DNA of 64,000 nucleotides from Myxococcales bacterium (GTDB lineage: Bacteria; Myxococcota_A; Polyangia; Haliangiales; Haliangiaceae). Under the pieces are notes generated by a model that worked only from the letters and a program-made list of their open reading frames with translations, had not been told where the DNA came from and did no database searches. The stretch is taken from assembly GCA_016707895.1 (NCBI GenBank), contig JADJGV010000034.1, forward strand, positions 565,625 through 629,624, in the 5' to 3' direction. Positions 11,478-57,716 of this stretch are shown in pieces (within the stretch, counting starts at the first letter, position 1; each line of letters starts with the position of its first letter). A program made the position numbers and the translations under genes.

Positions 11478-11504
11478 ACCGGAGCCGGCGCCTTCACCGC
11501 CCTC

Positions 11505-11550
11505 CCGTTCGACGCTCCGGGCCGTTTCGGGAGGGGGCCCCGGCCTCCTA
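11505..11550. repeat. intergenic GC-rich element family C ([30 protein letters not shown])
   Basis: A near-identical copy lies at 16276-16312. Both sit just downstream of gene 3' ends. Confidence 0.5.
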
Positions 11551-13340: not shown

Positions 13341-13513
13341 GGCCCTAGTCTATGGACCGGCGCGCGCGGGCGTCAATCGCCCGGGGGCGCGCGCCGCGGG
13401 AGTGGGCTGGCGCCGTCGTGGAGGCCCTTGACGCGCGCGCGAAATGAACCTCCGGGCCTGGCCGTTCGTTCAACCAGCGAGCGGACGCGCCGCGCCCGCC
13501 GCCAGGAGTCTCC

Positions 13514-16259: not shown

Positions 16260-16322
16260 CGATCAACCTGCCGTGCCCACGCTCCGGGCCGTTTTGGGAG
16301 GGGGCCCCGGCGAATGCCGGGG

Positions 16323-16345
16323 GAGGGTCTTTGCGAAAGACCCTC
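16323..16345. terminator. conserved hairpin GAGGGTCTTTGCGAAAGACCCTC (hairpin family A), downstream of clpX
   Basis: Perfect 10-bp stem. Near-identical copies lie at 22846-22868 and 35863-35887. Confidence 0.6.
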
Positions 16346-16357
16346 GTCTCAATACGC

Positions 16358-17566
<1,209 letters not shown>

Positions 17567-22793: not shown

Positions 22794-22845
22794 CCGCAAG
22801 CGGAGCCGGAGCCGTGGCCGCGGATCCGTGGCCGCTCTTGTGGGG

Positions 22846-22868
22846 GAGGGGCTTTGCGAAAGCCTCTC
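22846..22868. terminator. conserved hairpin (family A) between convergent L,D-transpeptidase and crp genes
   Basis: GAGGGGCTTTGCGAAAGCCTCTC. Confidence 0.55.
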
Positions 22869-22869
22869 T

Positions 22870-23559
22870 CTAGAACAGCGCGCGCAGCGCCGTCAGGTCC
22901 GACAGGATCACCTTGCGGCCATCGGTGACGATCAGCCGGCGCCGCTTGAACTGCGACAGCGTCAGCGACACGGTCTCGCGGGTCGAGCCGATCAGGTTGG
23001 CCAGCTCCTGGTGGGTGATCTTCATCGCCACCAGCTTGCCGCGGACGTCGTCGACGCCGTACTCGTCGGCCAGCTTGATCAGCTGCTCGGCCAGCTTGGC
23101 CGACACGTCGCGGAACACCAGCGCCTCGAGCTTGTTCTCGAGATCGTGACGGCGGGCGATGACCGCGCGTGCCACCGCGATGGCGAGCGGCGCGCTGGTC
23201 GTGAGGATGCGCTCGAAGTCGCCCTTGTCGACCTCGGCCAAGAGCGCGTTCTCGACGGCCTCGGCCATCTCGGTGCGCGCGGCGATGCCGACCAGGCAGG
23301 TCTCGCCGAACATGTCGCCGGGCCCGCAGTAGCCGAGCGTCAGCGACTTGCCGTCGCGCGTCACCTTGCAGATCTTCAAGCGCCCGCCGCACACGAAGTA
23401 CAGCGAGCGGCTGGGGTCACCTGGCAGATACACCACGTCCCGCCGCCGGACCTCCCGCAGCTCGACCTTCTCGGACAGCCGCGCCAGCACGTCGGGACCG
23501 GCCTCGGCCAGGACCGCTACCTTCTTCAGGTACCAAAGCGTCCGCTTGGGGTCGGTCAC
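22870..23559 (-). CDS. Crp/Fnr-family transcriptional regulator
   Basis: cNMP-binding domain plus a C-terminal HTH (RETVSLTLSQFKRRRLI). Likely GTG start at 23559, which overlaps the upstream gene's stop. Confidence 0.85.
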   Translation of the reverse strand: MTDPKRTLWYLKKVAVLAEAGPDVLARLSEKVELREVRRRDVVYLPGDPSRSLYFVCGGRLKICKVTRDGKSLTLGYCGPGDMFGETCLVGIAARTEMAEAVENALLAEVDKGDFERILTTSAPLAIAVARAVIARRHDLENKLEALVFRDVSAKLAEQLIKLADEYGVDDVRGKLVAMKITHQELANLIGSTRETVSLTLSQFKRRRLIVTDGRKVILSDLTALRALF

Positions 23560-29392: not shown

Positions 29393-30732
29393 CGGCGCCC
29401 CGCCTTCGCGGATCCCCGCATTCTGCTTGCCGGTGGGGCCTTGGCTCGGCGGCGCCGGCGTGCGGTCGGCGGCGCCTCGACCTGGCCGCCCACCTGAGCC
29501 GGAGCCACCGCGACCTCACCTCCCGCAGGGGACGGCGCCACCGCGGCTTCGCCGCCCGCAGGACGCGGCGGCCCCGCTTTCCCGTCTCCCACGTGGGACG
29601 GCGGCGCCCCATACGGTCGCCCGTCGGCGTGCGTGACCCGCAGCTTGCCAGGTGCGGTGCCGACGATCCGCAGCCGGCCATCATGCGCGGCCTTGTGATG
29701 CGCCGAGCACAGCACCGCCAGCTTGGTCGGCGTGTGATCGCCGCCCGCCACCCGCGGGACGATGTGGTGCACGTCGACGTACCGCGCGTTGCGGCACCCC
29801 GGCACCACGCACCGCCCGCGATCCCGCCGCAGCACCGCACGCCGGGTCCGCGGCGGGATCGTCTTGGTCACCCGCGCGGGCTTGTCGCCGTCGACCCGCC
29901 CCAGCAGCTCGGCGTCGCACGACGCCTGCGCCAGCTCCGTCTCGCTGATCTCGATCGTGTGCCCAGCGACGTCCTGCCACGCGCGCATGCAGTCGGGGCA
30001 CCGCGTGATCGCGATCTGATACATGGGCCTGGACGCCGCCGCGGCGTCTCCCTCGTGCGACGCCGCCGCGGCATCTCCCACGTGGGAGCCGGCGCCCGCC
30101 AGCTGCCCATCGCACAACGTCGCGATGAGGTCGCCGTCGGTCAGCGGGTGCCCGCACGCCGCCTCCAGCGCGCGCCGTGCTGCGGTGAACTTGCCCAGCA
30201 CCGCCGCGGGCAGCAGCAGCCGCAGCTCGTGCAGCCGCGCGGCGGGATCCGGCGGATCGTCCGGCGAGTCGCCCCGCCGGCGCCCGCTCACCATGTCCTC
30301 GATCTCCCGCACGGTGTGCTTGGCCGCCGCGGTCAGCCACGCCGCCTCGGTGTCGACGGTGGCGACCCGGGTCAGCTCGCGCGCCGCGCTGTACGCGACG
30401 TCGCCCGCGCTCATCGCCGCGCGCAGCTTCGGCAACGCCGCGAGCGCGTCGGCCACCCGCAAGCGCTCGCGCGCCGGTCCCGGCGCGTAGCCCAGCACGC
30501 GCTCGACGTACTCGAAGAACGTCGCGAAGCCCAGCTCGCGATGGACGCCGAGCGCCCGCGCGCGCCGCAGCCACGCGGCCTCCTCGACGTCGAGCGCCGC
30601 CCGCCGCCGCGCCAGCCCGCGCAACATCCGATCGACGTCGCGCCAGTCGTCCACGCCGGCCGCCGCGCCCGCCGCGCCCGCCGCCGCCGCCACCTCGCCC
30701 ACCTTCTGTTCGCCCGCTGCCCCGTCCACCAT
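29389..30732 (-). CDS. HNH endonuclease with DUF222 N-terminal domain
   Basis: HNH motif (RDRGRCVVPGC...VDVHHIVPRVAGGDHTPTKLAVLCSAHHKAAHDG) and a DUF222-like N-terminus. Start at ATG 30732, in frame within the 29389..31698 ORF. Confidence 0.8.
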   Translation of the reverse strand: MVDGAAGEQKVGEVAAAAGAAGAAAGVDDWRDVDRMLRGLARRRAALDVEEAAWLRRARALGVHRELGFATFFEYVERVLGYAPGPARERLRVADALAALPKLRAAMSAGDVAYSAARELTRVATVDTEAAWLTAAAKHTVREIEDMVSGRRRGDSPDDPPDPAARLHELRLLLPAAVLGKFTAARRALEAACGHPLTDGDLIATLCDGQLAGAGSHVGDAAAASHEGDAAAASRPMYQIAITRCPDCMRAWQDVAGHTIEISETELAQASCDAELLGRVDGDKPARVTKTIPPRTRRAVLRRDRGRCVVPGCRNARYVDVHHIVPRVAGGDHTPTKLAVLCSAHHKAAHDGRLRIVGTAPGKLRVTHADGRPYGAPPSHVGDGKAGPPRPAGGEAAVAPSPAGGEVAVAPAQVGGQVEAPPTARRRRRAKAPPASRMRGSAKAGRR

Positions 30733-30789
30733 ACCCAGCCCCTCAGCAAGCCGCGCGCCAGCCGTAACCCTGCGACGCCTGGCGCCGCG

Positions 30790-30871
30790 TGTCCGAATCT
30801 CGGACAAAATGGCCGGATTCGTCCGGCGTTCCGGCCATCCCCGGACAGCCACGGCTGTCCGGCGCCGGACA
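30790..30871. promoter_or_regulatory. array of four TCCGG-core palindromes upstream of the HNH endonuclease gene
   Basis: TGTCCGAATCTCGGACA (30790-30806), GCCGGATTCGTCCGGC (30812-30827), CCGGACAGCCACGGCTGTCCGG (30841-30862), TGTCCGGCGCCGGACA (30856-30871). Confidence 0.5.
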
Positions 30872-30935
30872 CCGCCAGCCCGCGCACGTCGACGCAGCCC
30901 GCTCCGTGACCCGCATCGGCGCCAGCCGCGCCGCG

Positions 30936-31865
30936 CTACTTGCGCGCGACGAAGTCGATCGACGTGATCGCCAGCTGCTCGCGGGTGTACTTCGCGAACT
31001 CGGGGTGCACCTTGATCTTGTCGAGCTGCGCCAGCCGCTCGGGCTTGGCCCGCGAGGTGTCGAGCGCGATCGTGAACCCAGCGGCCTTGGCCAGGTCGGT
31101 GAAGTCGGGCGCGCGCAGCCGGTTCTGGTACAGGAACCGGTTCTGCCACTTGGCCCAGCGCGCCGACGAGTACGACAGGTAGTGCAGCTGGTTGATGGCG
31201 TCGTCGCCGTAGGCGTAGTGATCGCCGCAGTTGACGCCGTGGATCATCACGCCCCCCGCGGGCAAGAGCCGGCGCGCCTCGGCGAAGATCGCCGCGATCA
31301 CCGGCCCCGGCACGTGCTCGAGCACGCTGTTGGAGAAGACGACGTCGATCGACCCGTCGGCCAGCGAGGTCGCGCTGGCGTCGGCCGGCGCGTGGTACTC
31401 GACCACGCCGTCGGTGGCGGCGGTGACGTCGGCGCCGCTGGCCAGCGCCCGCGCCACCTTGGCCAGCCGGTGCTCGACGTCGCCGGCGCCGACGCCAGCG
31501 GTCGACGCCAGCACCTCGATGTGGGCCGGGCGGGCCAGCACCTCGACGCACTGCCGGGTCAGCTCGGGCCGCAGGTAGCGGTTGAGATCGACCGTCACGA
31601 TCTTCGCCGCGCCCGCCGCGTACAGCGCGAACGGGAACAGCGTGTACCAGCCGGTGCCGATCTCGAGCATCCGTGCGCCCGGCACCTTGGCGCCGCACCG
31701 CGCGAGCATGTCGACCATCACCCGCCAGTCGTCGACCTTGATCGTCATCTCGCGGGTGACGTCGCGCAAGCCGCCGGCCTTGCGCTGTAGCTGGTAGTGC
31801 AGGTCGTCGCCCCGGGGGACCACCCCGAGGACCTTCTGGATCGCGCCCTTGATGCGCCAGTGCAT
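30936..31865 (-). CDS. class I SAM-dependent methyltransferase
   Basis: Rossmann motif I (LEIGTGWY) and a post-I acidic residue. There are no DNA-MTase (DPPY) motifs. Confidence 0.85.
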   Translation of the reverse strand: MHWRIKGAIQKVLGVVPRGDDLHYQLQRKAGGLRDVTREMTIKVDDWRVMVDMLARCGAKVPGARMLEIGTGWYTLFPFALYAAGAAKIVTVDLNRYLRPELTRQCVEVLARPAHIEVLASTAGVGAGDVEHRLAKVARALASGADVTAATDGVVEYHAPADASATSLADGSIDVVFSNSVLEHVPGPVIAAIFAEARRLLPAGGVMIHGVNCGDHYAYGDDAINQLHYLSYSSARWAKWQNRFLYQNRLRAPDFTDLAKAAGFTIALDTSRAKPERLAQLDKIKVHPEFAKYTREQLAITSIDFVARK

Positions 31866-31934
31866 GGGCCGCGCACCTTACACGAACCGCGCTCGATCTC
31901 CCACGCCGGCACCCCGGTGATACCTTCCGCGCCG

Positions 31935-33466
<1,532 letters not shown>

Positions 33467-33467
<1 letters not shown>

Positions 33468-34003
33468 TGCGCGGCGCGGCCGTGGCGGCGGCGGCGCTGG
33501 TGGCGTGCGGCCGCATCGACTACGACCCGGTCATCGACGGCGGCGCCGACGGCGACGCCGCGACCGACGCGCTGCCCGCGTGCACCGCGCCGTACGCCGT
33601 GATCGGCGGCTCGTGCTACCGCATGGTCGAGGTGCCGGCGAGCTGGGACGCGGCCCAGGCCGCCTGCGAGGCCGATGGCGCGCACCTGGTGATCGTCGGC
33701 TCGGTCGCCGAGCACGACGTCGTCCACGGCCTCCTGACCGACGCCGGCGTCACCGGCGGCTGGGTCGGCGCCAGCGATCGCGTCGCCGAGGACAGCTGGC
33801 GCTGGGTCGGCGCCGGCGGCGTCGACCTGCTGGCCGATCAGTGCTTCTTCGGCGCCGGCGGCCCGGCGAACTCGGCGGTGCTCGACTGCGTCGCCAGCTT
33901 CGCCACCAACTTCTGCGGCGACTACACGCTGTTCCTGTGCAGCGACAGCCACCCGTACGTGTGCGAGCGCGACGGCGTGGCGATCGATCGCGCCGCGTTC
34001 TGA
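33467..34003 (+). CDS. C-type lectin-like domain lipoprotein
   Basis: LVAC lipobox and a CTLD-like Cys/Trp pattern (GSCYR...WDAAQAACEADGAHL...WVGASD...WRWV...DCV...YVCE). The ATG overlaps the accC stop (TGATG). Confidence 0.6.
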
Positions 34004-34180
34004 CGCCGCCGCGCGCGGCCCGGCGCCGGTCCGCACGGGCGTGGCGATCGCTGGCGGGAGGATCGAGCATACGCCCGCGCGCGACGCGGTCAACGACGAA
34101 GCGCGCGGTGAAACCGCGCGGGTGACGATCGCGCGCGCTCGTGCGCATCGGCGATTGCCAAGCGGGTGCGCGATGGGTAG

Positions 34181-35854
<1,674 letters not shown>

Positions 35855-35862
35855 ACTCCCTG

Positions 35863-35935
35863 GAAGGGGCTTTCGCAAAGCCCCTTCCCCGTCGGGGGCA
35901 TGCCCCGACGGGGCCCCAACCCGAACCGCGAGAGC
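35863..35935. repeat. composite intergenic element: family-A hairpin plus family-B REP-like motif, downstream of pyrG
   Basis: GAAGGGGCTTTCGCAAAGCCCCTTC followed by CCCGTCGGGGGCATGCCCCGACGGGGCCCCAACCCGAACCGCGAG. Family-B copies lie at about 52399-52448 and 57680-57716. Confidence 0.6.
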
Positions 35936-35948
35936 CCACAGCCCCGCC

Positions 35949-36848
35949 ATGGACCGCGCCTTCGCCGCCGCGCTGACGGTCGAGCCGCCCGCGGTGACCG
36001 CGCTGGACGCGTGGCGCGCCGCCACCGCGGCGGTGCGCGCGGCGGGATCGACGCCGATCGCGCGCGCGTTCCTGGGCGGCGTGGCCGCCGATCGGCTGGG
36101 CTTCGCGTTCGCCGGCGGCTACGCCGAGGCGCTGCGCGCGCTGGTGCCGGCCCACCCGCGGCCGCTCGCGGCGCTGTGCGCGACCGAGGAGGGCGGGGCG
36201 CACCCGCGGGCCATCCGCACCGCGCTGACCGCGGCCGGCGACGGCTTCCTCCTGGCCGGCCACAAGCGCTGGGCCACGATGTCGGCCGCCGGCGGCGACC
36301 TGCTGGTGATCGCCACCCGCGGCGACGGCCCCGACGGCAAGCCCCGGCTGGTGGCGGTGACCGTGGCCGCCGACGCCCCGGGGGTGACGCTGACGCCGGC
36401 CAGCGCGCCGTTCGTCCCCGAGATCCCGCACGCGACGGTCGCGCTGGCCGACGTGGCGGTCGCCGCCGACGCGGTGCTGCCCGGCGACGGCTACGCCACG
36501 TACCTCAAGCCGTTCCGCACCGTCGAGGACCTCCACGTCCACGCCGCGCTGTGCGGCTACCTGATCGGCGTGGCCCGGCGCCACCACCTGGGCGACGCGC
36601 TGGTCGAGCGCGGCCTGGCGCTGGCCGCGGCGCTGGCGACGCTCGGCGCCGCCGACCCGCGCGCCGCCGCCACCCACCGCGCCCTGGCCGGCGCGATCGA
36701 TCTGGCCAGCGACCAGGTCGCCGCGCTGGAGGCCGCCTGGGCCGCGGTCGGCGGCGACGAGTGGCAGCGCTGGCAGCGCGACCGGCCGCTCCTGGGCGTG
36801 GCCCGGGCCGCCCGGGCCGCCCGGCTCGAGCGCGCCCGGCAGGGGTAA
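35949..36848 (+). CDS. acyl-CoA dehydrogenase-like protein (short)
   Basis: Ala-rich sequence with acyl-CoA-DH middle and C-terminal-like segments. The assignment is only moderately supported. Confidence 0.5.
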   Translation: MDRAFAAALTVEPPAVTALDAWRAATAAVRAAGSTPIARAFLGGVAADRLGFAFAGGYAEALRALVPAHPRPLAALCATEEGGAHPRAIRTALTAAGDGFLLAGHKRWATMSAAGGDLLVIATRGDGPDGKPRLVAVTVAADAPGVTLTPASAPFVPEIPHATVALADVAVAADAVLPGDGYATYLKPFRTVEDLHVHAALCGYLIGVARRHHLGDALVERGLALAAALATLGAADPRAAATHRALAGAIDLASDQVAALEAAWAAVGGDEWQRWQRDRPLLGVARAARAARLERARQG

Positions 36849-36901
36849 CCGGACCAAACCGCAGGCGGAGCTGGATCCGGAGCGTCGATCCCGTGTGGTT
36901 T

Positions 36902-36917
36902 AGCAACATCGGTGCCA
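36902..36917 (-). promoter_or_regulatory. sigma-54-type -24/-12 promoter-like motif TGGCACCGATGTTGCT (minus strand)
   Basis: Reverse complement of 36902-36917 reads TGGCAC-N5-TTGCT, which matches the consensus TGGCACG-N4-TTGCW. Confidence 0.35.
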
Positions 36918-37054
36918 CAAGCCGTCGCCGGGGGTAGACATCATCCGATGGCTTGGGTAGAGTCGTGACGAGTTGGGCTAATGCCAACTTCGGGCCAGCG
37001 TGAAGGGCGGCCCGTGCCTCATTCCAACGTTACGGAATTAAAGGAGGATCGCCG

Positions 37055-38574
37055 ATGGGCATGGAGATGCGCCAAGAGCTGCGACTGAGTCAGCAGCTCG
37101 TCATGACGCCTCAGCTCCAGCAGGCGATCAAGCTGCTTCAGCTGTCCCGCATGGAGCTCGTGGACATGGTCCACGAGGAGATGCTCGAGAACCCGATCCT
37201 CGAAGACGACTTCGAGGTCTCAGCCGAGCAGGGCAAGGAGCGAGAGCTCCTGGGCGGCGACGACCAGCTCGCGATGCAGATGGAGCGAGCCGGCAACACC
37301 GAGCTACCCCCGCTCGAGCAGACGCCGGTCGAGAACGCCAACCAGGTCGAGGTCAAGGCCGACGGCACCGCGGTCAACGAGATCGACTGGGAGAACTACC
37401 TCGACAACTACTCGAGCGCCTCGCCGATGCCGTCGTACCGCGGCGACAGCGAGGACCTGCCGTCGCTCGAGGCCACGCTCACCCGGCCGCCGTCGCTCCA
37501 CGACCACCTGGCCTGGCAGCTCAAGCTGTCGGACCTCGAGGATCGCGAGAAGGAGCTGGGGCTCATCATCATCGGCAACATCGACGCCGATGGCTACTTC
37601 AAGGAGCCGACGGTCAGCGAGCTGGCCGCCGACGAGGGTGTCAGCGAGGAGCTGGTCGAGAAGGTGCTGGAGAAGATCCAGACCTTCGATCCGGTCGGCA
37701 TCGGCGCGCGCAACCTCGCCGAGTGCATGCTGATCCAGGCCATCGCGTGCGGCCAGGACGACGACCTCGTCGTCAAGATGATCAAGAGCCACCTCAACAA
37801 CCTGGTGAAGAAGAACTACGCGGCGATCGTGCGCGATCTGAAGAAGCCGCCGCCGGCGCCGCAGATGGACATCGAGGAGATCTACGAGGCGGCCAAGGTC
37901 ATCATGGAGTTCGACCCGCGCCCGGGTCGGCAGTACGCCTCCGACGATCCGCACTACATCACCCCCGACGTCTACATCCACAAGGTCGGCGACAAGTTCT
38001 TCGTCGTGCCCAACGACGACGGCCTGCCCAAGCTGAAGATCGCCAACTTCTACAAGGCGGCGATGGGCTCGGGGGAGAAGTCCAAGGAGTACGTCCAGGA
38101 CAAGATGCGGTCGGCGCAGTGGCTGATCCGCTCGATCCAGCAGCGCCAGCGCACGATCATCAAGGTCGCCGAGTCGATCCTGAAGTTCCAGCGCGAGTTC
38201 TTCGACAAGGGCATCGCCCACCTGAAGCCGCTGATCCTGCGCTCGACATCGCCGAGGACATCGGCATGCACGAGTCGACGGTGTCGCGCGTGACGACCAA
38301 CAAGTACGTCCACACGCCGCAGGGCATCTACGAGCTGAAGTTCTTCTTCAACTCGGGCATCTCGTCGTCGTCGGGCGACGACCTCGCCTCGCAGGCGGTC
38401 AAGTCCAAGATCAAGGAGCTGGTCGACGCCGAGGACGCCAAGCGCCCGCACAGCGACCAGAAGATCGTCGAGCTGCTCAAGAAGGGCGGCATCAACATCG
38501 CCCGCCGCACCGTCGCCAAGTACCGCGAGCAGATGGGCATCCTGTCGTCGAGCCAGCGCAAGCAGGTGTTCTGA
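37055..38574 (+). CDS. rpoN: RNA polymerase sigma-54 factor RpoN, interrupted by an apparent frameshift near 38240
   Basis: AAGGAGG RBS 7 nt upstream of ATG 37055. Glutamine-rich region I, core-binding region, and the RpoN box ARRTVAKYRE. The HTH/RpoN-box part (DIAEDIGMHESTVSRV...) lies in a different frame (track ORFs 37055..38293 and 37723..38574). Confidence 0.85.
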
Positions 38575-38640
38575 CAGCCGCCCGCCATTCGCCGTCGCTG
38601 GTGTGCGAGGCCGTCGGGATGCCGCCGGTCCGGTCGCGGG

Positions 38641-39519
38641 TCAGAAGCCGGAGAAGGCGCGGAGGCGGGCGGCGTCGGGGGTGGTGCGGCCGGCGGCGTC
38701 GCGCAGCACGAGCTCGTCGGTGGCGAGCGGCGCGGCGGCGTGGGCCAGGGTCCAGACGGCGAACAGCGGCGGCTTGGGGGCGTGGGCCACGATCGCGGTG
38801 CGGGCGACGACGTGCAGGCCGACCTCGGCGGCGGCGGCCTGCAGCCGGCCCTCGGTGCGCGCGTCGCCGCACAAGACCAGCGCGCCGCCGGGCGCCAGCG
38901 CCGCCGCGCCGGCCACGACGTAGGCGTCGATGCCGCCGCGGTACTCGATGCGCGCGTAGGCCCGCTGCTCGTCCTGGGCGTCGACCGCGGCGTCCGGGGG
39001 GAAGTACGGCGGCGTGCCGGTGACCAGATCGAACAGGCCGACCCGCAGCTCGCGCAGATCGCCGTGGTGGATCGCGACCCGCGCGCCGAGCTGGTTGCGC
39101 CGGACGTTCTCGGTCAGGAGCGCGAACGACACCGCCTGGGCCTCGATGCCGACCAGCGTCGCCGCCGGCAGGCTCCACGCCAGGTGCAGCAGCACCGAGC
39201 CGATGCCGCAGCCGAGGTCGAGGATCCGCCGCGCGTCGGGCGCGCGCCGGCACGCCACGTACGCGGTGGCCATGTCGTCGCTCGAGAACCGGTGGCCGCG
39301 GGCGCGCTGGACGATCGTCAGGTCGCGGGTGAGCCGGTCCTCGGTCAGCGGGCCCCAGCGCGGGTCGAGCATGCGCGCGTGTACCAGATCGCGGCGCGCC
39401 GTGGCGCGGCCGGCGGCGAGATCGTAGCTCCGGCGCGCGCGTGAGGGAAGGGCGGCGGGAGGCAACCGTCGGGCGGCGCGCGTGGCGTCGAAGAGTCGAC
39501 GAAGAACGTGTTGTCGCAC
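38641..39519 (-). CDS. N6-adenine-type methyltransferase, YfiC/TrmN6-like
   Basis: Rossmann motif ILDLGCGIG and an NPPY-like TPPYF motif. The start may be the internal ATG 39372. Confidence 0.75.
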   Translation of the reverse strand: MRQHVLRRLFDATRAARRLPPAALPSRARRSYDLAAGRATARRDLVHARMLDPRWGPLTEDRLTRDLTIVQRARGHRFSSDDMATAYVACRRAPDARRILDLGCGIGSVLLHLAWSLPAATLVGIEAQAVSFALLTENVRRNQLGARVAIHHGDLRELRVGLFDLVTGTPPYFPPDAAVDAQDEQRAYARIEYRGGIDAYVVAGAAALAPGGALVLCGDARTEGRLQAAAAEVGLHVVARTAIVAHAPKPPLFAVWTLAHAAAPLATDELVLRDAAGRTTPDAARLRAFSGF

Positions 39520-39576
39520 TTCCGCGATGCTGTCGCAGCGTTACACTTGTCGTGTAACAACGGCTTCGGAGGCCAA

Positions 39577-40158
<582 letters not shown>

Positions 40159-40262
40159 CGGGATCGGTAGGCCCGCCGGGGAGGGCCCCCGGCGCCCGAT
40201 CACGGGGGTAGCGGACCGTTGGGGTTGCTGGGTGACCGTGATAGGGTGGCCGCCACCGAGCC

Positions 40263-40723
40263 ATGAAGATCGTCGATCTGATCGGGCGCGACATGATCGT
40301 GCCGGCGCTGGCCGGGACGGACAAGCGGTCCATTCTCGAAGAGCTGGCCGCCCACGTCGCGCGCCAGCACCCCCGCATCGATCGCGCCACCCTCACCCGT
40401 GTGCTGGTCGATCGCGAGGCCCTGGCCTCGACGGCGATCGGCGAGGGCGTCGCGATCCCCCACGGCAAGCTCAGCGCGGTGACGGAGATCGTCGCCTGCC
40501 TGGGCCGGGCGCGCGCCGGCGTCGACTTCGACGCGATGGACAAGCAGTCCACCTACCTGTTCTTCGTCCTGGTGGCGCCCGAGTCGTCGACCGGCGCCCA
40601 CCTGAAGGCCCTGGCCCGGATCAGCCGCGTGTTCAAGGACGGCAGCTTCCGCAAGCGTCTGCTCGAGGCGCCCGACGCCGACGGCATGTTCGCGGTGATC
40701 GCCGAGGAAGACGCCAAGTACTG

Positions 40724-40724
<1 letters not shown>
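40263..40724 (+). CDS. ptsN: PTS IIA-Ntr nitrogen regulatory protein PtsN
   Basis: EIIA-fructose/Ntr family (active-site His in IPHGK). Confidence 0.85.
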
Positions 40725-41692
<968 letters not shown>

Positions 41693-41695
41693 GCC

Positions 41696-42536
41696 ATGCA
41701 GATCGTCGTCGTCACCGGGCTGTCGGGGGCGGGCAAGTCCAGCGCGCTGCGCGCGGCTCGAGGACATCGAGTATTACTGCGTCGACAACCTGCCGCTGCC
41801 GTTCATGACCGAGCTGGTCGAGGCGCTGGCCCGCGACGGCCAGGCCGACAAGCTGGCGGTGGCGATCGACTCGCGGCAGCGCCGCTACCTGCCGACGTGG
41901 GGCGCCGAGCTGGCCAAGCTGCGCGGCGCCGGCCACCGCCTCGAGGTGATGTTCCTCGACGCCAAGGACGACGTGCTCTTGCGCCGGTTCTCCGAGACCC
42001 GGCGCCGCCACCCGCTGTCGGGCGACGAGGTGTCCGAGGGCATCCGCCGCGATCGCGAGCTGCTCGCCGAGCTGCGGATCGGCGCCGCGGTGGTCGACAC
42101 GTCGAACCTGACGACCCACCAGTTCAAGGCGATCATCCAGGACCGCTACGGCGGCACCGGCAAGCTGGCGGTGACGCTGGTGTCGTTCGGGTGGAAGCAC
42201 GGCGCGCCGGTCGAGTTCAACCTGGTGTTCGACGTCCGGTTCCTGCCCAACCCGTACTTCGAGCCGACCTTGACCCACAAGGACGGCCGCGACCCCGACG
42301 TCGCGCGGTTCGTGTGCGCCTCGGCCGACGGCCTCGAGCTGGTCGAGCGGGTCGAGAGCCTGCTGCGGTTCTCGCTGCCGCAGTTCCAGCAAGAGGGCAA
42401 GCTGTACGTGACCGTGGCGGTGGGCTGCACGGGTGGCCGGCATCGCTCGGTCGCCATCGTCGAAGAGCTGCGCCGGCGGCTCGGCGGCGACTGGGACATC
42501 CTGGTCCGGCATCGCGACGTTGATCGAGGGGAGTGA
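41696..42536 (+). CDS. rapZ: RNase adaptor / nucleotide-binding protein RapZ, with an apparent +1 frameshift near 41752
   Basis: N-terminal MQIVVVTGLSGAGKSSALRA (Walker A) in one frame. The continuation LEDIEYYCVDNLPLPF... runs to the C-terminus in the next frame (ORFs 41696.. and 41805..42536). Confidence 0.8.
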
Positions 42537-42817
42537 CGATGTCCGAGATTGCACAGCAGGCGATCGTGATCAGCAACGAGCTGGGGCTGCACGCGCGCGC
42601 CGCCACCAAGTTCGTGCAGCTGGCGGGCAAGTACCCGTGCGACGTCGTCGTCGGCAAGGACGGCCACGACGTCAACGGCAAGAGCATCATGGGCGTGCTC
42701 ATGCTGGTGGCGTCGAAGGGGACGACGATCGTGATCAGCGCCAAGGGGCCGCAGGCCGCCGACGCGGTCGCGGCGCTGGTCAAGCTGGTCCAGGACAAGT
42801 TCGGCGAGGAGCGCTAG
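42533..42817 (+). CDS. ptsH: phosphocarrier protein HPr
   Basis: HPr fold (LGLHARAAT). The start is GTG 42533 or ATG 42539. Confidence 0.85.
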   Translation: MTMSEIAQQAIVISNELGLHARAATKFVQLAGKYPCDVVVGKDGHDVNGKSIMGVLMLVASKGTTIVISAKGPQAADAVAALVKLVQDKFGEER

Positions 42818-42820
42818 CCG

Positions 42821-44626
42821 GTGTCCGAGCGCGACCGCGAGCACGCCGGCGAGCGCCCCACCGGCGAGATCCGCCGGGACGGCGTCGCGGTCTCGGCCGG
42901 CATCGCGATCGGGCGCGCGTTCCTGGTCGGCCGCGATCTGATCAAGGAGCCGCGCTATCACGTCGAGGCCGACGACGTCGACAGCGAGGTCGCGCGCCTG
43001 CGCAAGGCGATCGCGTCGTCCGACAAGCAGCTGGCCAAGATCAAGAGCAAGCTGGCCGAGGAGGAGGCGTCGAGCGACTTCCACATCATCACCGCCCACC
43101 AGCTGATGCTCCACGACGAGCACCTGGTCGACGCGACGATCGGGTACATCAAGGACGAGCTGATCAACGCCGAGTGGGCGCTGACCAAGGCGGTCGGCGA
43201 CATCCGCGGCGTGTTCGACGCGATCGAGGACGACTACTTCCGCGAGCGCCGCAGCGACGTCGACTTCGTCGGCGAGCGCGTGCTGCGCAACCTGCTGGGC
43301 AAGGAGACCGGGCCGCTCAAGCCGCCGCCCGACGCGATCGTCGTCGCCTACGACCTGTCGCCGGCCGACACCGCGCAGCTGCACAAGCACGCGGTGGCGG
43401 GCCTGATCACCGACGCCGGCGGCAAGACCTCGCACACCGCGATCATCGCCCGCGCCCACGAGCTGCCGGCGGTGGTCGGCCTCGAGGACATCACCGAGCT
43501 GGTGCTCGACGACGACCTGCTGATCGTCGACGGCGGCGCCGGCGTGGTGATCGTCAACCCGACGCCGACGACGGTCGGGCAGTACCGCGATCAGCAGCGC
43601 AAGCAGGTGGCGCTCGAGGAGCAGCTGCTCGGCAACAAGGACCTGCCGGCCACGACCAAGGATGGCGTGGCGGTGCAGCTCTACGCCAACATCGACGGCC
43701 CCGACGAGATCGACGGCGCGCTCGAGCACGGCGCGGTCGGCATCGGCCTGTACCGCACCGAGTACCTGTTCATGGTGGGCGACCACGTCCCCGACGAGGA
43801 GACCCACTACAAGACCGCGGTCGAGGTGCTCGAGCGGATGGCCGGCCGGCCGGTGACGATGCGCACCTTCGATCTGGGCGCCGACAAGCTGGCCAAGTTC
43901 CTCGAGGAGGCCGCCCTCGACGAGGCCAACCCGGCGCTGGGGCTGCGCTCGATCCGGCTGTGCCTGGCCGACCTGGGGCAGGGGCTGTTCCGCACCCAGC
44001 TGCGCGGCCTGTTGCGCGCCAGCGCCCACGGGCCGCTGCGGATCATGTTCCCGATGATCTCGGGGGTCGCCGAGCTGCGCGCGGCGATGGCGGTGCTCGA
44101 CGACGTCAAGCGCGAGCTGCGGGCGTCGAAGGTGCCCTTCGACGAGCACATCAAGATCGGCATCATGATCGAGATGCCGGCGGCGGCGGTGATCGCCGAC
44201 CTGCTGGCCAAGGAGACCGCGTTCTTCTCGATCGGCACCAACGACCTCATCCAGTACACGATGGCGGTCGATCGCGTGAACGAGCTGGTGTCGTACCTGT
44301 ACGAGCCGCTGCACCCGGCGCTGTTGCGGCTGGTGCGCGACACGGCGATCGCCGCCCACGCGGCGGGGATCCCGGTCAGCCTGTGCGGCGAGATGGCGGC
44401 CGACCCGCTGGTGGCGCCGGTGCTGCTCGGCCTGGGGATCACCGAGCTGTCGATGAGCGCGGTGTCGATCCCCGAGGTCAAGGGGCTGGTGCGCGCGAGC
44501 ACGATGAGCGAGCTGCAGGCGCTGGTGGCGCGGGTGGTGTCGCTGCCGACGGCGGAGGAGATCCGGGCGGCGGTGACGGCGTACATGGCCAGCGTGACGG
44601 CGGCGGCGGCCGCGGCGGGGAAGTAG
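42821..44626 (+). CDS. ptsI: phosphoenolpyruvate-protein phosphotransferase (PTS enzyme I)
   Basis: Full EI similarity (phospho-His region GGKTSHTAI, PEP-utilising domain). Confidence 0.9.
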   Translation: MSERDREHAGERPTGEIRRDGVAVSAGIAIGRAFLVGRDLIKEPRYHVEADDVDSEVARLRKAIASSDKQLAKIKSKLAEEEASSDFHIITAHQLMLHDEHLVDATIGYIKDELINAEWALTKAVGDIRGVFDAIEDDYFRERRSDVDFVGERVLRNLLGKETGPLKPPPDAIVVAYDLSPADTAQLHKHAVAGLITDAGGKTSHTAIIARAHELPAVVGLEDITELVLDDDLLIVDGGAGVVIVNPTPTTVGQYRDQQRKQVALEEQLLGNKDLPATTKDGVAVQLYANIDGPDEIDGALEHGAVGIGLYRTEYLFMVGDHVPDEETHYKTAVEVLERMAGRPVTMRTFDLGADKLAKFLEEAALDEANPALGLRSIRLCLADLGQGLFRTQLRGLLRASAHGPLRIMFPMISGVAELRAAMAVLDDVKRELRASKVPFDEHIKIGIMIEMPAAAVIADLLAKETAFFSIGTNDLIQYTMAVDRVNELVSYLYEPLHPALLRLVRDTAIAAHAAGIPVSLCGEMAADPLVAPVLLGLGITELSMSAVSIPEVKGLVRASTMSELQALVARVVSLPTAEEIRAAVTAYMASVTAAAAAAGK

Positions 44627-50176: not shown

Positions 50177-51427
50177 TCAGAAGCTGCAGAGGGGCACCGG
50201 GCCGCACAGCCGGCTGTTGGGATCGCAGAAGCCGGCGGTGCACTGGTCGTCGCTGTTGCAGGCCGCGCCGTCGCCGAGCGGCCCCTCGCAGGCGCCGGTC
50301 GCGGCGCCGCTGACCTCGTTGGAGCAGTGCAGGCCGGTCGAGCACGAGTTGGGGTCGCTGGCGAAGACGCCGTCGCTCGAGCGCGTGCAGGTCGCGCCCA
50401 CCGCGCCGGCCGGCTGGCAGGTGCCGCCATCGCAAGCCAGCGTGGCGCCGCACCAGGCCTGGCCCTGGGCGGTGCCGCACGGCGCGCCGACGGTCAGCGA
50501 CGGCGTGCAGGTGCCGGGGCTGCCGCTGGGGCCGGCGCAGTACTGGTGGCCGAAGCAGCCGAAGATGCCGTCGCAGCTCGCGCCGGCGGCGCGCACGTCG
50601 CGGCAGATGCCGGTGGTGGTCGAGGTGTCGCCGACGCACAGGAGCTCGCCGAGACACTCGAGATCGTCGCTGCAGATCGAGCCGGCGGGCTTGCTCGTGG
50701 TGCAGGTGCCGGTGGCGGTGCTGTCGTTGTGGCCGCCGTTGCAGAACAGCCCCGGGTCGCAGTCGTTGCCGCCGTCGCACGGCCGGCCGGCCGCGCCCGA
50801 CTCGCACAGCGAGATGTCCATGTTGGTGGCGGTGTCGCGCTTGGACACGCAGTAGTCGGCGGGGCCGCAGAAGCCGCCGTTGGCGCACGACTGGCCGGTG
50901 GCCGCGGGCTTCCGGCACACCTTGCTGCCGCAGGCCTGGCCGCCCGACGGCGACTCGCAGCGGGCGCCGGCGGTGGCGCACTCGAAGTCGGCCTGGCACG
51001 CCGCGCCGTCGTTGACGTTGCCGACGATGGCGCCGCACTCGGCCAGCAGGTCGCCGCCGCTCTTCATCAGCTCGCAGGTGCCGGTGATCCGCGCGACGCA
51101 GCTGGCGGCGGCGGTGGGGTTCCACTGGGCGCGGCCGCGGGCGACGCTGTCGTCGAGCATGCGCCGGGCCGCCACCTGGGTCAGGTCGTTGAACAGGAAC
51201 AGCGGCAGGTGATCGCAGTCGAGGTGCGTGGTCGAGCTGCCGAAACAGTCGTCGATCAGGCTGCACGCGGCGCGGCTGAAGCAGACGAAGAACTCGTCGA
51301 CGGTGAGCGAGCTCGCGGCGCAGCCGTCGGCGGCGCTGTCGATGCCGGCGTCCTCGACGGCGGGCGGCACCTCGCCGCAAGCGGTGACCAGGGGGACGGC
51401 GACGAGCAGGGCGGCCACGATGCGCAT
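50177..51427 (-). CDS. Cys-rich secreted lipoprotein
   Basis: Start ATG 51427 (MRIVAALLVAVPLVTAC lipobox). More than 50 cysteines in repeated C-x-G-x-C modules. Confidence 0.7.
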   Translation of the reverse strand: MRIVAALLVAVPLVTACGEVPPAVEDAGIDSAADGCAASSLTVDEFFVCFSRAACSLIDDCFGSSTTHLDCDHLPLFLFNDLTQVAARRMLDDSVARGRAQWNPTAAASCVARITGTCELMKSGGDLLAECGAIVGNVNDGAACQADFECATAGARCESPSGGQACGSKVCRKPAATGQSCANGGFCGPADYCVSKRDTATNMDISLCESGAAGRPCDGGNDCDPGLFCNGGHNDSTATGTCTTSKPAGSICSDDLECLGELLCVGDTSTTTGICRDVRAAGASCDGIFGCFGHQYCAGPSGSPGTCTPSLTVGAPCGTAQGQAWCGATLACDGGTCQPAGAVGATCTRSSDGVFASDPNSCSTGLHCSNEVSGAATGACEGPLGDGAACNSDDQCTAGFCDPNSRLCGPVPLCSF

Positions 51428-52370
51428 CCCCACATTGTCGCGGGTCGCTCGGCCAGGCTCAAGGGGCACCGGCGGGCGCGCGACCGAGATCACGGCGGCG
51501 ATCCGCGCTACCCTCGCCGCGGTGCCGCCGCGCTTCACCTGGCATGACGTGGCCGCCTGGTTCCCGGTGCGGGTGCTGCGCCACAGCCGGCGCGACGACG
51601 CGCCGGTGCTGGCCGCGGGCGTCGCGATGTACCTGCTGCTGGGGCTGTTGCCCACGCTGGCGGCGGTGGTGTCGATCTACGCGCTGATCGCCGACCCGAC
51701 GCAGATCGAGGGCCACCTCGCCGGCCTGGATCGGGTCGTGCCCGACGACGTCTACCGCCTGCTGGTCGATCAGCTGCAGCGCGCCAGCCACCGCTCCGAC
51801 GACGAGCTGCGCCTGACCCTGGCCGGCGCGGTCGTGCTGGCGCTGTGGTCGAGCCGCGCCTCGGCCAACGCGCTCCTGGTCGGCATCGAGCGCATCGACG
51901 GCACCCGCAGCCGGTGGCGCGGCTGGCGGCGGCTGGTGCTGACGACCCTGCTCGCGCTGGGCGCGCTGTTCTCGGCGGTGACGCTGCTCGCGGTGGTGGT
52001 GGCCATGCCGGCGACCAGCGCGACGCTCGCGCCGGGGCTGCGCAGCTGGCTGGTGGCGCTGCGCTGGCCGGCGCTGATCCTCACCGGCGTGACCGGGCTG
52101 TCGGTGCTGTACGCGCTGGGCGGGCCGCCGCGGCCCAAGCGGCAGATCATCCCCGGCGCGCTGGTCGCGACCGCGCTGGGCTTGCTCGCGTCGCTGGGCG
52201 TCTCGTACTACGTGGCCGATCTGGCCAGCTACCAGTCGCTGTACGGCACGTTCGGCAGCGCGATGGTGGTGGTGCTGTGGTTCTACGCCTGCTCGCTGGC
52301 GGTGATGATCGGCGCGGTCGTCAACACCGAGCTGCGCGTGCCGAGCGACCCGTCGTGGTCGCGGTACTGA
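51420..52370 (+). CDS. YihY/BrkB-family membrane protein
   Basis: Six TM helices matching the YihY family. Start ATG about 51420 (MRIPTLS). Confidence 0.7.
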   Translation: MRIPTLSRVARPGSRGTGGRATEITAAIRATLAAVPPRFTWHDVAAWFPVRVLRHSRRDDAPVLAAGVAMYLLLGLLPTLAAVVSIYALIADPTQIEGHLAGLDRVVPDDVYRLLVDQLQRASHRSDDELRLTLAGAVVLALWSSRASANALLVGIERIDGTRSRWRGWRRLVLTTLLALGALFSAVTLLAVVVAMPATSATLAPGLRSWLVALRWPALILTGVTGLSVLYALGGPPRPKRQIIPGALVATALGLLASLGVSYYVADLASYQSLYGTFGSAMVVVLWFYACSLAVMIGAVVNTELRVPSDPSWSRY

Positions 52371-52375
52371 ATTTC

Positions 52376-52504
52376 AGGAGGGCGTGTCGCCACGCCCTCC
52401 CCCGTCGGGTCATGCCCCGACGGGGCCCCCTCCCAAGACGCGAAACGCCTGGCGCATGGGTCGGTGCTCGGCCGAAATACTCACAAGCTCTGAGTTTCAG
52501 GAGG
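52376..52504. repeat. intergenic REP-like element (family B) flanked by a 14-bp direct repeat TGARTTTCAGGAGG
   Basis: Hairpin GGAGGGCGTGTCGCCACGCCCTCC, then the CCCGTCGGGTCATGCCCCGACGGGGCCCCCTCCCAAGACGCGAAAC motif. The direct repeats are at 52368-52381 and 52491-52504. Confidence 0.55.
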
Positions 52505-52539
52505 TGCGTCGCTGAGCGCGCGCGCCGGCCTCCCCGCGG

Positions 52540-57597: not shown

Positions 57598-57600
57598 TTA

Positions 57601-57716
57601 GAGGGCCTGTCGCCAGGCCCAGGTGGAGGCAGGTGGGGCACCGGTTGCATGAACCACGGACGTGCGCGTGGGGACGCCGGACGTCCCCGACGGGGCCCCA
57701 CCCAAGACGCGAGACA
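57601..57716. repeat. terminator hairpin plus family-B REP-like motif downstream of regA
   Basis: GGGCCTGTCGCCAGGCCC hairpin (same TCGC loop as at 52386), then GTCCCCGACGGGGCCCCACCCAAGACGCGAGAC. Confidence 0.55.

Follow-up and report, generated by a model that had tools for sequence, protein, structure and literature searches.

Identity of the recurrent hairpins

What are the GC-rich hairpins that recur behind genes in this myxobacterial genome? In the window, which is the whole 64,000-nt stretch of DNA that was analysed, a preliminary description distinguished three families of intergenic motifs (A, B and C) that combine modularly at gene 3' ends. Short repeats dispersed between genes are a familiar feature of Proteobacteria. 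The motifs themselves are present, each at or a few bases from where that description placed it. The 30-mer of family C occurs twice, with copies that differ at a single (Y) position, against 0.00 occurrences expected by chance. The family-B 15-mer CCCCGACGGGGCCCC has three exact occurrences and its tail CCCAAGACGCGARAC has two. In family A, the stems at 16323-16345, 22846-22868 and 35862-35888 are perfect over 10-12 bp; the consensus first given for this family has a loop one base too long, so that the literal pattern needed three mismatches, and the true core is CTTT-SSS-AAAG. For patterns this short and GC-rich, with mismatches permitted, the chance controls alone carry no information.

The division into three distinct families does not hold. 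What were described as families A, B and C turn out to be modules of a single, directional composite element, and family C is the tail, located 3' of family B, read as its reverse complement. In the alignment of all pattern matches the module order is identical, from hairpin 1 through hairpin 2 to the tail. The modules that had been described as combining are real, but they are fixed parts of one element. Read along the strand of the upstream gene, all three family-A hairpins have the loop CGC, which indicates that the element is directional.

The element begins with a short leader that is purine-rich or contains CTGA(G), often with a TGA within it. Hairpin 1 has a GAGGG/CCCTC base, a variable but compensated stem interior and a TCGM loop (GAGGG…TCGM…CCCTC), and hairpin 2 has a CCCC/GGGG base and a variable interior (CCCC…GGGG). 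The C-rich tail CCCCCTCCCAARACG, 3' of hairpin 2, is almost invariant, and this unpaired segment is the best-conserved part of the element. The 3' modules differ between lineages and tandem iteration is possible, with periods of 88-158 nt in relatives; copies occur singly or as direct tandem arrays, with arrays of 5 units among them. The palindrome head is GAGGG or GGAGG and not a GTAG-type tetranucleotide. In the three complete window copies (E1-E3), the two local hairpins are the only inverted repeats and terminal inverted repeats were not found; the ends of subfamily 2, to which E3 belongs, have no mutual complementarity.

Six copies in the window

With filters off, a scan of the entire window by a covariance model built for the composite element (R1) detects exactly six sites and no others, at 90, 53, 47, 19, 18 and 17 bits. 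Three copies, those behind clpX, pyrG and a brkB-like gene, are complete, and three are degraded. All six lie in sense orientation 0-12 nt past the stop codon of the upstream gene. The stems are perfect, with 10-12 bp in hairpin 1 and 7-11 bp in hairpin 2. The features are as follows.

11480..11547, - strand: element E5, partial, directly after a Ser/Thr-kinase stop (11548-11550)
16263..16357, - strand: element E1, fills the 95-nt spacer from the clpX stop (16358-16360) to the next gene start (16262)
16323..16345, - strand: E1 hairpin 1 (family A), GAGGGUCUUU-CGC-AAAGACCCUC, perfect 10-bp stem
16305..16322, - strand: E1 hairpin 2, CCCCGGC-AUUC-GCCGGGG, 7-bp stem
16279..16304, - strand: E1 tail, CCCCCTCCCAAAACG plus GGCCCGGAGC; its + strand reading is family C
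16358..17566, - strand: clpX (Pfam zf-C4_ClpX and AAA_2), whose stop precedes E1
22827..22869, - strand: element E6, partial, 1 nt past a Crp-family regulator stop (22870-22872)
34232..35854, + strand: pyrG, CTP synthase (Pfam CTP_synth_N, 5.8e-121), whose stop precedes E2
35855..35948, + strand: element E2, fills the spacer from the pyrG stop (35852-35854) to the ATG at 35949
35862-35888, + strand: E2 hairpin 1, 12 bp
35887-35913, + strand: E2 hairpin 2, 11 bp
35914-35928, + strand: E2 diverged tail, CCCCAACCCGAACCG
51228..52370, + strand: BrkB/YihY-family membrane protein gene (Pfam Virul_fac_BrkB, 7.6e-41), whose stop lies within the E3 left junction
52367..52512, + strand: element E3, subfamily 2, full length, a repeat of ~150 nt (also given from 52360)
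52377-52400, + strand: E3 hairpin 1
52400-52425, + strand: E3 hairpin 2
52426-52440, + strand: E3 tail, CCCCCTCCCAAGACG
52441-52489, + strand: E3 3' module
52490-52512, + strand: E3 right-end CTGAG and start of a partial second unit
57598..57716, + strand: element E4, interrupted or degraded, after a response-regulator stop (57595-57597)
57601-57620, + strand: E4 hairpin 1, GAGGGCCTGTCGCCAGGCCC, followed by ~50 nt of unrelated sequence
57670-57688, + strand: E4 second hairpin, GGGGACG-CCGGA-CGTCCCC
57696-57715, + strand: E4 tail, CCCCACCCAAGACGCGAGAC

On the - strand, E1 consists of a 12-nt leader, hairpin 1, hairpin 2, the tail and the 3' extension GGCCCGGAGC. It scores 90.2 bits (E 3e-18) with R1, of whose seed this copy was part, and its sequence is the same in 5 contigs of the window's species except for two sites outside the core. 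E2 scores 53.3 bits (E 4.5e-10) and is identical in L001-L003. E3 scores 47.1 bits (E 1e-8). Its left junction, CTGAA, contains the brkB-like stop (52368-52370), and a 15-nt direct repeat, CTGARTTTCAGGAGG, is found at 52367 and 52490. Over 100-136 nt, E3 is 93-97% identical to copies in L019, L029, L024, L016 and L036, with unrelated flanks. The motif copy listed at 52399 in the preliminary description belongs to this longer repeat of about 150 nt (52360-52512).

The degraded copies retain different parts of the element. E4 scores 17.0 bits (E 0.046), and the variable stem interior and loop of its hairpin 1 (CCTGTCGCCAGG) are the same as in the L012 copy; this hairpin-1 module, at 57601-57620 right after the stop, had been missed for the copy at 57680. 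E5 is without hairpin 1 (GAGGCCGGGGCCCCCTCCCGAAACGGCCCGGAGC), its tail pairs with the downstream CGGGAGGG, and it scores 18.4 bits. E6 has a hairpin 1, GAGAGGCUUUCGCAAAGCCCCUC, at 22846-22868, with a single A·C mismatch on the strand of the upstream gene; it is followed by a tail remnant, CCCCACAAGAGCG, and then by a (GGCTCC)-like repeat, and the copy scores 19.3 bits. Whole-window repeat finding was dominated by GC-rich similarity among coding sequences and did not report the elements; Tandem Repeats Finder was of no more help when applied to the window.

Position and orientation

Is the association with gene 3' ends, as first described, more than an impression? Both placement and orientation of the element are non-random. 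All 66 non-redundant sites are intergenic. A co-oriented stop codon lies at most 40 nt upstream in 49 of the 66, and the element starts -2 to +13 nt from the stop in 45, while a convergent stop is found within 40 nt of the core's 3' end at only 3 sites. Two sites follow tRNA genes and start 2-7 nt past the tRNA end, one after tRNA-Cys in L094 and the other after the last tRNA-Gly of a cluster in L033. In subfamily 2 the left junction is CTGA (CTGA(G/A)) at 16 of 19 sites, as against a C before the stop in 15 of 39 window genes, and the right end is …GCGCTGAG (CTGAG) at 11 of 21 sites. A link of the element strand to a shallow GC-skew minimum near 36 kb is inseparable from gene orientation.

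Secondary structure and terminator features

Watson-Crick compensatory changes maintain both stems. In the alignment, which was fitted to the model and from which the structure counts were taken, 97% of cells are paired and seven pairs have double-sided changes (46 cells). The covariation score is 0.181, compared with 0.052 in shuffles (0 of 500 reach 0.181) and at most 0.04 with slid partners. Both hairpins are present in the MFE and centroid folds. G-U pairs are nearly absent (2 of 628 cells), and thus the pairs give no sign of RNA-level over DNA-level selection. E2 folds at -28.2 kcal/mol, where controls average -20.8 kcal/mol per 45 nt. By the energies of hairpins downstream of well-called genes, the elements are not separable from random 74%-GC sequence; because of this overlap, energy alone is no criterion.

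The element contains no T-tract, and a terminator scan flags none of the copies; the hairpins are followed by CCCCCUCCCAAAACG and not by a U-tract. Canonical hairpin-plus-T-tract terminators are not above chance between 10 and 64 kb, and none is located at a gene end that has an element. At the gathering threshold, Rfam 15 yields 0 matches over the window, and the window tRNA scan is also empty. At E<=1, Rfam gives nothing on E3 and only isrB on E1 (E 0.64, 16 bits where the gathering score is 35 bits). According to a recent survey, transcript 3' ends carry stem-loops whether or not they depend on a factor, and U-tracts are shorter in species of high GC content (PMC13613805). In Escherichia coli, terminators a few bp past a stop are repressed (PMC4824070). 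Hairpin 1 is so near the stop that it would lie under the terminating ribosome.

Dispersal and turnover

The element is not confined to the window. It is found at 90-100% identity in unrelated contexts, where the flanks fail to align, in at least three Kofleriaceae/Myxococcales MAGs and in ~50 wastewater metagenome contigs. The pattern CGGGGCCCCCTCCCRARACG matches 36 loci in the genome collection, concentrated in three Kofleriaceae MAGs (~17 in Gw_SlAct_bin_340, ~10 in 'new MAG-81' and 5 in ABC1.117), and 53 metagenome loci, many of them at contig ends; assemblies break at elements. The covariance model recovers 45 copies in the fetched loci (~0.3 Mb). A search of viral contigs, phage genomes and plasmids gave no element match. 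The element is specific to a clade of uncultured Kofleriaceae (Myxococcota). Near-identical copies occupy non-orthologous loci both within and between genomes, and E1 matches non-orthologous copies at 98% identity in a species for which the identity of clpX DNA is just 91.5%.

Elements are gained or lost between closely related species. The clpX junction carries 0, 1 or 2 copies in three related lineages, a series that compares species 5-9% diverged, in which the exact insertion boundaries and any target duplication are unreadable. The window's species has one element at this junction and L095 (clpX DNA 95% identical) has two, while E1 is missing at the orthologous junction of the closest relative and two relatives at 92% have none behind clpX. 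The junction without an element reads TGATG (overlapping genes) in Gw_SlAct_bin_340 as well as in 7 metagenome variants, and the gene downstream of clpX is orthologous there (48% identity, E 8e-25). Relatives with PyrG 84-88% identical likewise have no element after pyrG. No strain-level presence/absence polymorphism was seen within the window's species, as all its contigs carry E1, E2, E3 and E5, and none involving an element was found next to clpX in L045-L052.

Comparison with known elements

The proposal of REP/MITE-like elements or a shared termination or processing signal stands as far as a dispersed, REP/MITE-like repeat at gene 3' ends is concerned, but specific defining features of REP/REPINs (inverted doublets and a GTAG head, with no RAYT seen) and of classical MITEs (terminal inverted repeats) are missing. 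The element resembles MITEs (Correia/NEMIS, ERIC and RUP) in that it is 60-150 nt long, non-coding, dispersed, present or absent between relatives and close to genes, with possible effects on transcripts. It differs from MITEs in having no terminal inverted repeats and no known full-length IS relative, and in its strict orientation to the upstream gene. BIME of E. coli, RIME of Rhizobium and MIRU of Mycobacterium are mosaic or tandem intergenic repeats. With these the element shares modular palindromic units and linkers and a variable tandem copy number in intergenic regions, and with MIRU also the orientation with transcription and the contact with the upstream stop codon. However, it has no sequence relationship with any of the three; BIME and RIME units alternate in inverted orientation, and MIRU carries small translation-coupling ORFs, of which none is evident in the element.

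The ends of IS200/IS605 elements and their non-autonomous derivatives offer another parallel. They also have subterminal hairpins and no terminal inverted repeats, and they show apparently strictly oriented insertion beside a short left flank (here CTGA/CTGAG) with a related right-end sequence. IS200/IS605 elements move by single-strand 'peel and paste' transposition (PMC3201880, PMC5027513). We regard this likeness as a mechanistic analogy only. The flanking CTGAG, where duplicated, may just as well be a target duplication or mark the beginning of a further, truncated unit of a tandem array. An integron attC site was considered and rejected: the GTTRRRY/RYYYAAC core sites are absent from the element, and its neighbours are housekeeping genes in mixed orientation (clpX, pyrG and tRNAs).

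A search of the literature on REP/MITE elements in myxobacteria, Kofleriaceae and Haliangiales returned nothing relevant. The element is an undescribed but unsurprising relative of REP/MITE-type repeats.

Origin and function

How did the element reach so many gene ends, and what does it do there? The best explanation, which we consider reasonably likely, is a REP/MITE-like, non-autonomous dispersed repeat specific to one clade, with mobility, HUH/Y1-type copying and a role at 3' ends as its inferred parts. The element would be a mobile or self-expanding repeat that is copied by a trans-acting enzyme. A strand-specific, hairpin-recognising mechanism of the HUH/Y1 type would fit better than a DDE transposase because of the CTGA left junction, the CTGAG right end, the subterminal hairpins and the lack of terminal inverted repeats. 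No IS200/RAYT-like transposase or recombinase was matched among the ORFs of at least 70 aa in ~0.7 Mb of element loci plus the window, a weak test that covers ~1% of each genome with an approximate IS200 TnpA phmmer query and an HUH-region motif scan.

The element probably forms or protects transcript 3' ends. After insertion, the two stem-loops at the start of the 3' UTR may act as a factor-dependent or hairpin-only 3'-end former and as an exonuclease block, and the double hairpin may substitute for the canonical hairpin-plus-U-tract terminators that the genome lacks. With such a role, it would be understandable that copies are tolerated, and perhaps retained, exactly where transcription units end. 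A bolder version, which we hold to be doubtful, is a 'mobile terminator': an HUH/Y1-mobilised, strand-specific element that targets stop-like CTGA(G)/TRR sequences and delivers a sense-oriented double-hairpin 3'-end module to the ends of genes and tRNA operons, in a 74%-GC genome devoid of canonical intrinsic terminators.

Four other explanations have to be weighed against the non-autonomous dispersed repeat. The hairpins could be the REPs of a genuine REP/REPIN-RAYT system, mobilised by a single-copy RAYT encoded elsewhere in the genome. For REPs, roles in termination and in stabilising the mRNA upstream have been proposed. Like the REP/REPINs of Enterobacteria, Pseudomonas and Stenotrophomonas, the element is a short GC-rich extragenic palindrome with compensated stems and many copies, mostly intergenic at gene 3' ends; it is also lineage-specific and breaks short-read assemblies. 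Such general behaviour is described for REPs (PMC3116915, PMC3337134 and PMC3686654). Nevertheless, we consider a REP/REPIN-RAYT system unlikely, given that the element is directional and oriented with the upstream gene, abuts the stop within ~13 nt, unites two different hairpins with a conserved unpaired tail, lacks a GTAG-type head and occurs singly or in direct tandem instead of in the inverted doublets of REPINs. In addition, a Y1/RAYT-like ORF was not seen in the ~0.7 Mb of element-rich loci, which with the approximate query is a weak argument. Similarity that arises by chance among GC-rich hairpins of a 74%-GC genome has a negligible probability. Short GC-rich patterns with mismatches are indeed expected at about the observed rate, and random 45-nt windows fold to about -21 kcal/mol. 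Random similarity is nonetheless refuted by the 30-mer that occurs twice against 0.00 expected, by the E-values of the complete copies (1e-8 to 1e-18) with the model sites in the window limited to six, and by stretches of 100-150 nt that recur in other genomes and metagenomes with 93-100% identity.

The two remaining alternatives place the function in the transcript. Host-evolved terminators or mRNA-stabilising stem-loops, under selection and not mobile, would owe their similarity to a functional consensus. The element shares with Rho-independent terminators one or two stable GC-rich stem-loops just downstream of genes and tRNAs, in sense orientation; its placement at the ends of transcription units, including tRNA genes, is strict, its stems are compensated, and the genome segment is without canonical terminators. 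However, the element has no U-tract, its hairpin 1 falls in the footprint of the terminating ribosome, and its identity of 90-100% over 56-153 nt extends far beyond the stem, to loops, tail and spacers, all of them dispensable for a terminator. This identity exceeds that of clpX between the same species, and tandem arrays of 5 units, the turnover to 0, 1 or 2 copies at one orthologous junction and the assembly breaks at elements also argue against host terminators, which we find improbable. A structured RNA family of 3'-UTR-derived sRNAs or cis-regulatory RNAs, with the C-rich, anti-Shine-Dalgarno-like single-stranded tail CCCCCUCCC as its seed, would account for the strict orientation and for the position of the most conserved segment downstream of two stable hairpins in the sense strand of 3' UTRs. 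This reading appears very improbable: Rfam has no match at the gathering threshold and isrB (E 0.64) is well below it, RNA-specific signatures including G-U pairs (2 of 628 cells) are lacking, and no terminator after the tail defines an sRNA 3' end. It is repeats, and not regulatory RNAs, that typically form tandem arrays and turn over in copy number.

Wider relevance

The regularity of the dispersed repeat is unusual in its fixed orientation, its start ~13 nt or less from a stop or tRNA end, its two compensated hairpins and its invariant C-rich tail. If the element forms transcript 3' ends, it would show by what means gene ends are set in a very GC-rich genome that has no U-tract terminators, and it would be a case of mobile DNA supplying that function. 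If it were moreover a 'mobile terminator', a large share of the transcript 3' ends in this lineage would have been built by transposition and not by point mutation. The element accounts for assembly breaks in these MAGs and is a lineage marker for an abundant group of wastewater myxobacteria, and the covariance model can be used to mask or annotate the repeats.

A single directional element

Direct reading placed each motif of the preliminary description, which distinguished hairpin/REP-like families A, B and C, where it had been reported. The family-A hairpins are perfect (16323-16345, 22846-22868 and 35862-35888), but their proposed IUPAC consensus carries a surplus loop base, and the literal pattern therefore matches only with three mismatches. 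The family-C 30-mer occurs twice in the window, with 0.00 expected from shuffles, and family B is represented by three exact occurrences of its 15-mer and two of its tail. At the window's 74% GC, short GC-rich patterns carry little weight on their own, and a whole-element model combined with other genomes is stronger.

The division into three families dissolves when copies are read in the sense of the gene ending just upstream (gene identities by Pfam). All copies then share one order: stop codon, 0-12 nt leader, hairpin 1, hairpin 2 and tail CCCCCTCCCAARACG. Family A corresponds to hairpin 1, whose base is GAGGG…CCCTC and whose loop is TCGM or CGM. The palindromic half of family B is hairpin 2 (base CCCC…GGGG), and the 3' half of family B is the tail. 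Family C, written on the + strand, is the tail together with its 3' extension GGCCCGGAGC, reverse-complemented. The element is directional, since the sense-orientation loop is CGC in all three family-A hairpins.

A covariance model of 56 positions and 17 pairs, built from ten subfamily-1 copies and run with filters off, matched exactly six sites in the window.

Element copies in the window: location, strand and covariance-model score
E1, after clpX, - strand, 90 bits
E2, after pyrG, + strand, 53 bits
E3, after a brkB-like gene, + strand, 47 bits
E6, after a Crp-family regulator gene, - strand, 19 bits
E5, after a Ser/Thr kinase gene, - strand, 18 bits
E4, after a response regulator gene, + strand, 17 bits

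The hairpin-1 module of E4 (57601-57620), directly after the stop, had been overlooked. Two main subfamilies were apparent among copies. Subfamily 1 (E1-like) has hairpin 1 GAGGGT(C/T)TTTCG(A/C)AAA(A/G)ACCCTC and hairpin 2 CCCCGGCATTCGCCGGGG. Subfamily 2 (E3-like) spans ~150 nt and reads CTGAG-TTCCTN-hairpin 1-hairpin 2-tail-CGCGAAACGCCTGGCGCATGGGTCGGTGCTCGGCCGAAAGAC…GCGCTGAG. Its left junction is CTGA at 16 of 19 sites (baseline: C precedes the stop in 15 of 39 window genes), and its right end is …GCGCTGAG at 11 of 21. A 15-nt direct repeat, CTGARTTTCAGGAGG, brackets E3.

A further G-run/C-run hairpin, CCGGGGAGGGCCCCCGG, lies at 40159-40215, past a gene ending at 40158; it resembles the tail region, yet is unmatched by the covariance model. 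Cumulative GC skew (30000-40000) has a shallow minimum at ~34-38 kb, with three elements on the - strand to its left and three on the + strand to its right; the skew is weak, and the strand pattern is confounded with gene orientation.

Covariation and placement

Pairing was counted in a covariance-model-derived alignment of 45 copies (40 distinct). In this model-fitted alignment, standard pairs fill 97% of cells, and double-sided changes occur at 7 of 17 pairs (46 cells). At 0.181, the covariation score is above that of every one of 500 shuffled alignments (0.052 ± 0.007), and with slid partners it is at most 0.04. Hairpin-1 interiors switch cleanly among GTCTTT/AAAGAC, GTTTTT/AAAAAC, GCGTG/CACGC, GCCTG/CAGGC and GACCTT/AAGGTC. 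Only 2 of 628 cells are G-U pairs, and the data are thus silent on whether the hairpin acts as RNA or as single-stranded DNA. E1-E3 form both hairpins in MFE as well as centroid folds (z-scores -2.1 to -3.1), at absolute energies ordinary for this base composition.

Among 66 non-redundant sites, array-internal copies being left out, 49 have a co-oriented high-GC3 ORF stop within 40 nt upstream, 45 of them at -2 to +13 nt. Several remaining sites show a visible TGA 7-8 nt upstream that was rejected by the crude ORF filter. A convergent stop lies within 40 nt of the core 3' end at only 3 of 66 sites. Two elements follow tRNA genes, so that the preferred place is the end of a transcription unit and not only of an ORF. 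One complete element lies 7 nt past tRNA-Cys (locus L094, 6078-6350), and in L033, from the Kofleriaceae MAG ABC1.117, two hairpin-1 units begin 2-3 nt past the last tRNA-Gly of the first tRNA block. A TGA or TAG triplet immediately precedes GAGGG in these cases also. After the L094 element, a 56-nt module, GGCCCGGAGCRTGCTGCGCGGGGAGCGGGAGACCACCACCGC, occurs three times in tandem. L033 (860-7940) holds sixteen tRNA genes in 8 kb, in one orientation and two blocks, between which lie several copies of the element and 3' module.

Distribution and turnover

The element is not confined to the window. Pattern CGGGGCCCCCTCCCRARACG, for which we estimate ~0.004 chance matches per 10-Mb GC-rich genome, matched 36 loci in a genome collection (one genome per species) and 53 in metagenomes. 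Three Kofleriaceae/Myxococcales MAGs hold most genome matches (about 17, 10 and 5); the others are single matches that lie in coding sequence or on contigs that are probably mis-binned. The metagenome loci come mainly from three JGI wastewater-type samples, one containing the window's organism, whose exact PyrG and ClpX proteins are confined to metagenome and MAG contigs. Contig ends hold many of the metagenome matches, which is the pattern expected if the repeat breaks assemblies. No match came from viral contigs, phage genomes or plasmids.

Window elements are 90-100% identical over 56-153 nt to copies in collection MAGs, none of which is the window's source, and the flanks are unalignable. 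In one species clpX DNA is only 91.5% identical, yet non-orthologous copies of the element match E1 at 98%. Direct tandem arrays occur in relatives, with 5.2 units of 158 nt (L025), 151-nt units (L010) and 88-nt units (L018).

The clpX junction forms a three-state series of 0, 1 and 2 elements across related lineages. No element is present in the MAG Gw_SlAct_bin_340 or in seven metagenome variants, where ClpX is 97% identical and the stop of clpX overlaps the next start (TGATG); the next gene is an orthologue (48% identity, E 8e-25) of the gene downstream of clpX in the window. In the window's species, a 95-nt spacer, nearly invariant in five contigs, is filled by E1, and no polymorphism was seen within this species. 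Locus L095 (clpX DNA 95% identical) carries two tandem elements, and the second has its hairpin 2, tail and 3' flank in common with E1. No element follows clpX in relatives with ClpX at 92%, and none follows pyrG in relatives with PyrG at 84-88%.

Nature and possible role of the element

The preliminary description left open a REP/MITE-like element or a termination or processing signal. Near-identical copies at non-orthologous loci, strict orientation, changing copy number at one junction, tandem expansion and assembly breaks mark the element as most likely a REP/MITE-type dispersed repeat specific to its lineage. In behaviour it resembles intergenic repeats of the REP, BIME, RIME and MIRU types, but it lacks the inverted doublets and GTAG head of REP sequences and the terminal inverted repeats of MITEs. 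The lack of terminal inverted repeats, the subterminal hairpins and the fixed short left flank argue against a DDE-type MITE; the same features resemble IS200/IS605 and RAYT systems, which use hairpin-recognising single-strand HUH/Y1 enzymes (PMC3201880, PMC5027513, PMC3116915). No HUH/Y1 gene was found in ~0.7 Mb of sampled loci, a weak test. The element has no attC cores and no Rfam match, and no such repeat in Kofleriaceae or myxobacteria was found in the searched literature.

The termination or processing part of the earlier proposal survives in conditional form. From its position, tRNA genes included, the apparent lack of canonical terminators in the window and published 3'-end stem-loops, we infer that the element may form or protect transcript 3' ends. 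Whether or not a factor is needed, stem-loops are reported at 3' ends, and high-GC species are reported to have short U-tracts (PMC13613805). Hairpin-plus-T-tract sites in 10000-64000 number 3, 3 and 5, against 3.3, 3.3 and 1.9 in shuffled sequence, so their frequency does not exceed chance; those listed appear to lie within coding-ORF calls and not at gene ends, and this region seems to be without canonical intrinsic terminators. A simple intrinsic terminator fits the element poorly, because it has no U-tract, which places it outside that definition, and because hairpin 1 is near the stop, where the terminating ribosome should mask it (PMC4824070). Hairpin 2 is outside the ribosome footprint. 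We consider it unlikely that the element is a 'mobile terminator' targeting stops and 3' ends.

Other observations

Hexanucleotide microsatellites, (CTCGGW)n, (GGCTCC)n, (GATCCS)n and (CCCCGA)n, often lie 3' of elements in relatives (loci L031, L011, L035, L007, L038 and L018), and a short (GGCTCC)-type remnant adjoins E6 (22807-22835). Such microsatellites could be an additional module of the family. A 45-nt tandem repeat (2.8 copies, 100% matches, 25069-25196) runs into ~26 GAGCCG copies; this region (25059-25364), within a long ORF (24999-27029, - strand), may be low-complexity coding sequence or kin of the element-adjacent hexamer repeats elsewhere. The window also holds a conserved rpoN-centred cluster, with sigma-54 confirmed by Pfam and following genes that look like hpf/ptsN/rapZ/HPr/EI by position only, and a 775-aa HEAT-repeat protein with 93-nt DNA periodicity (37055-44626 and 13448-15841 for these features together).
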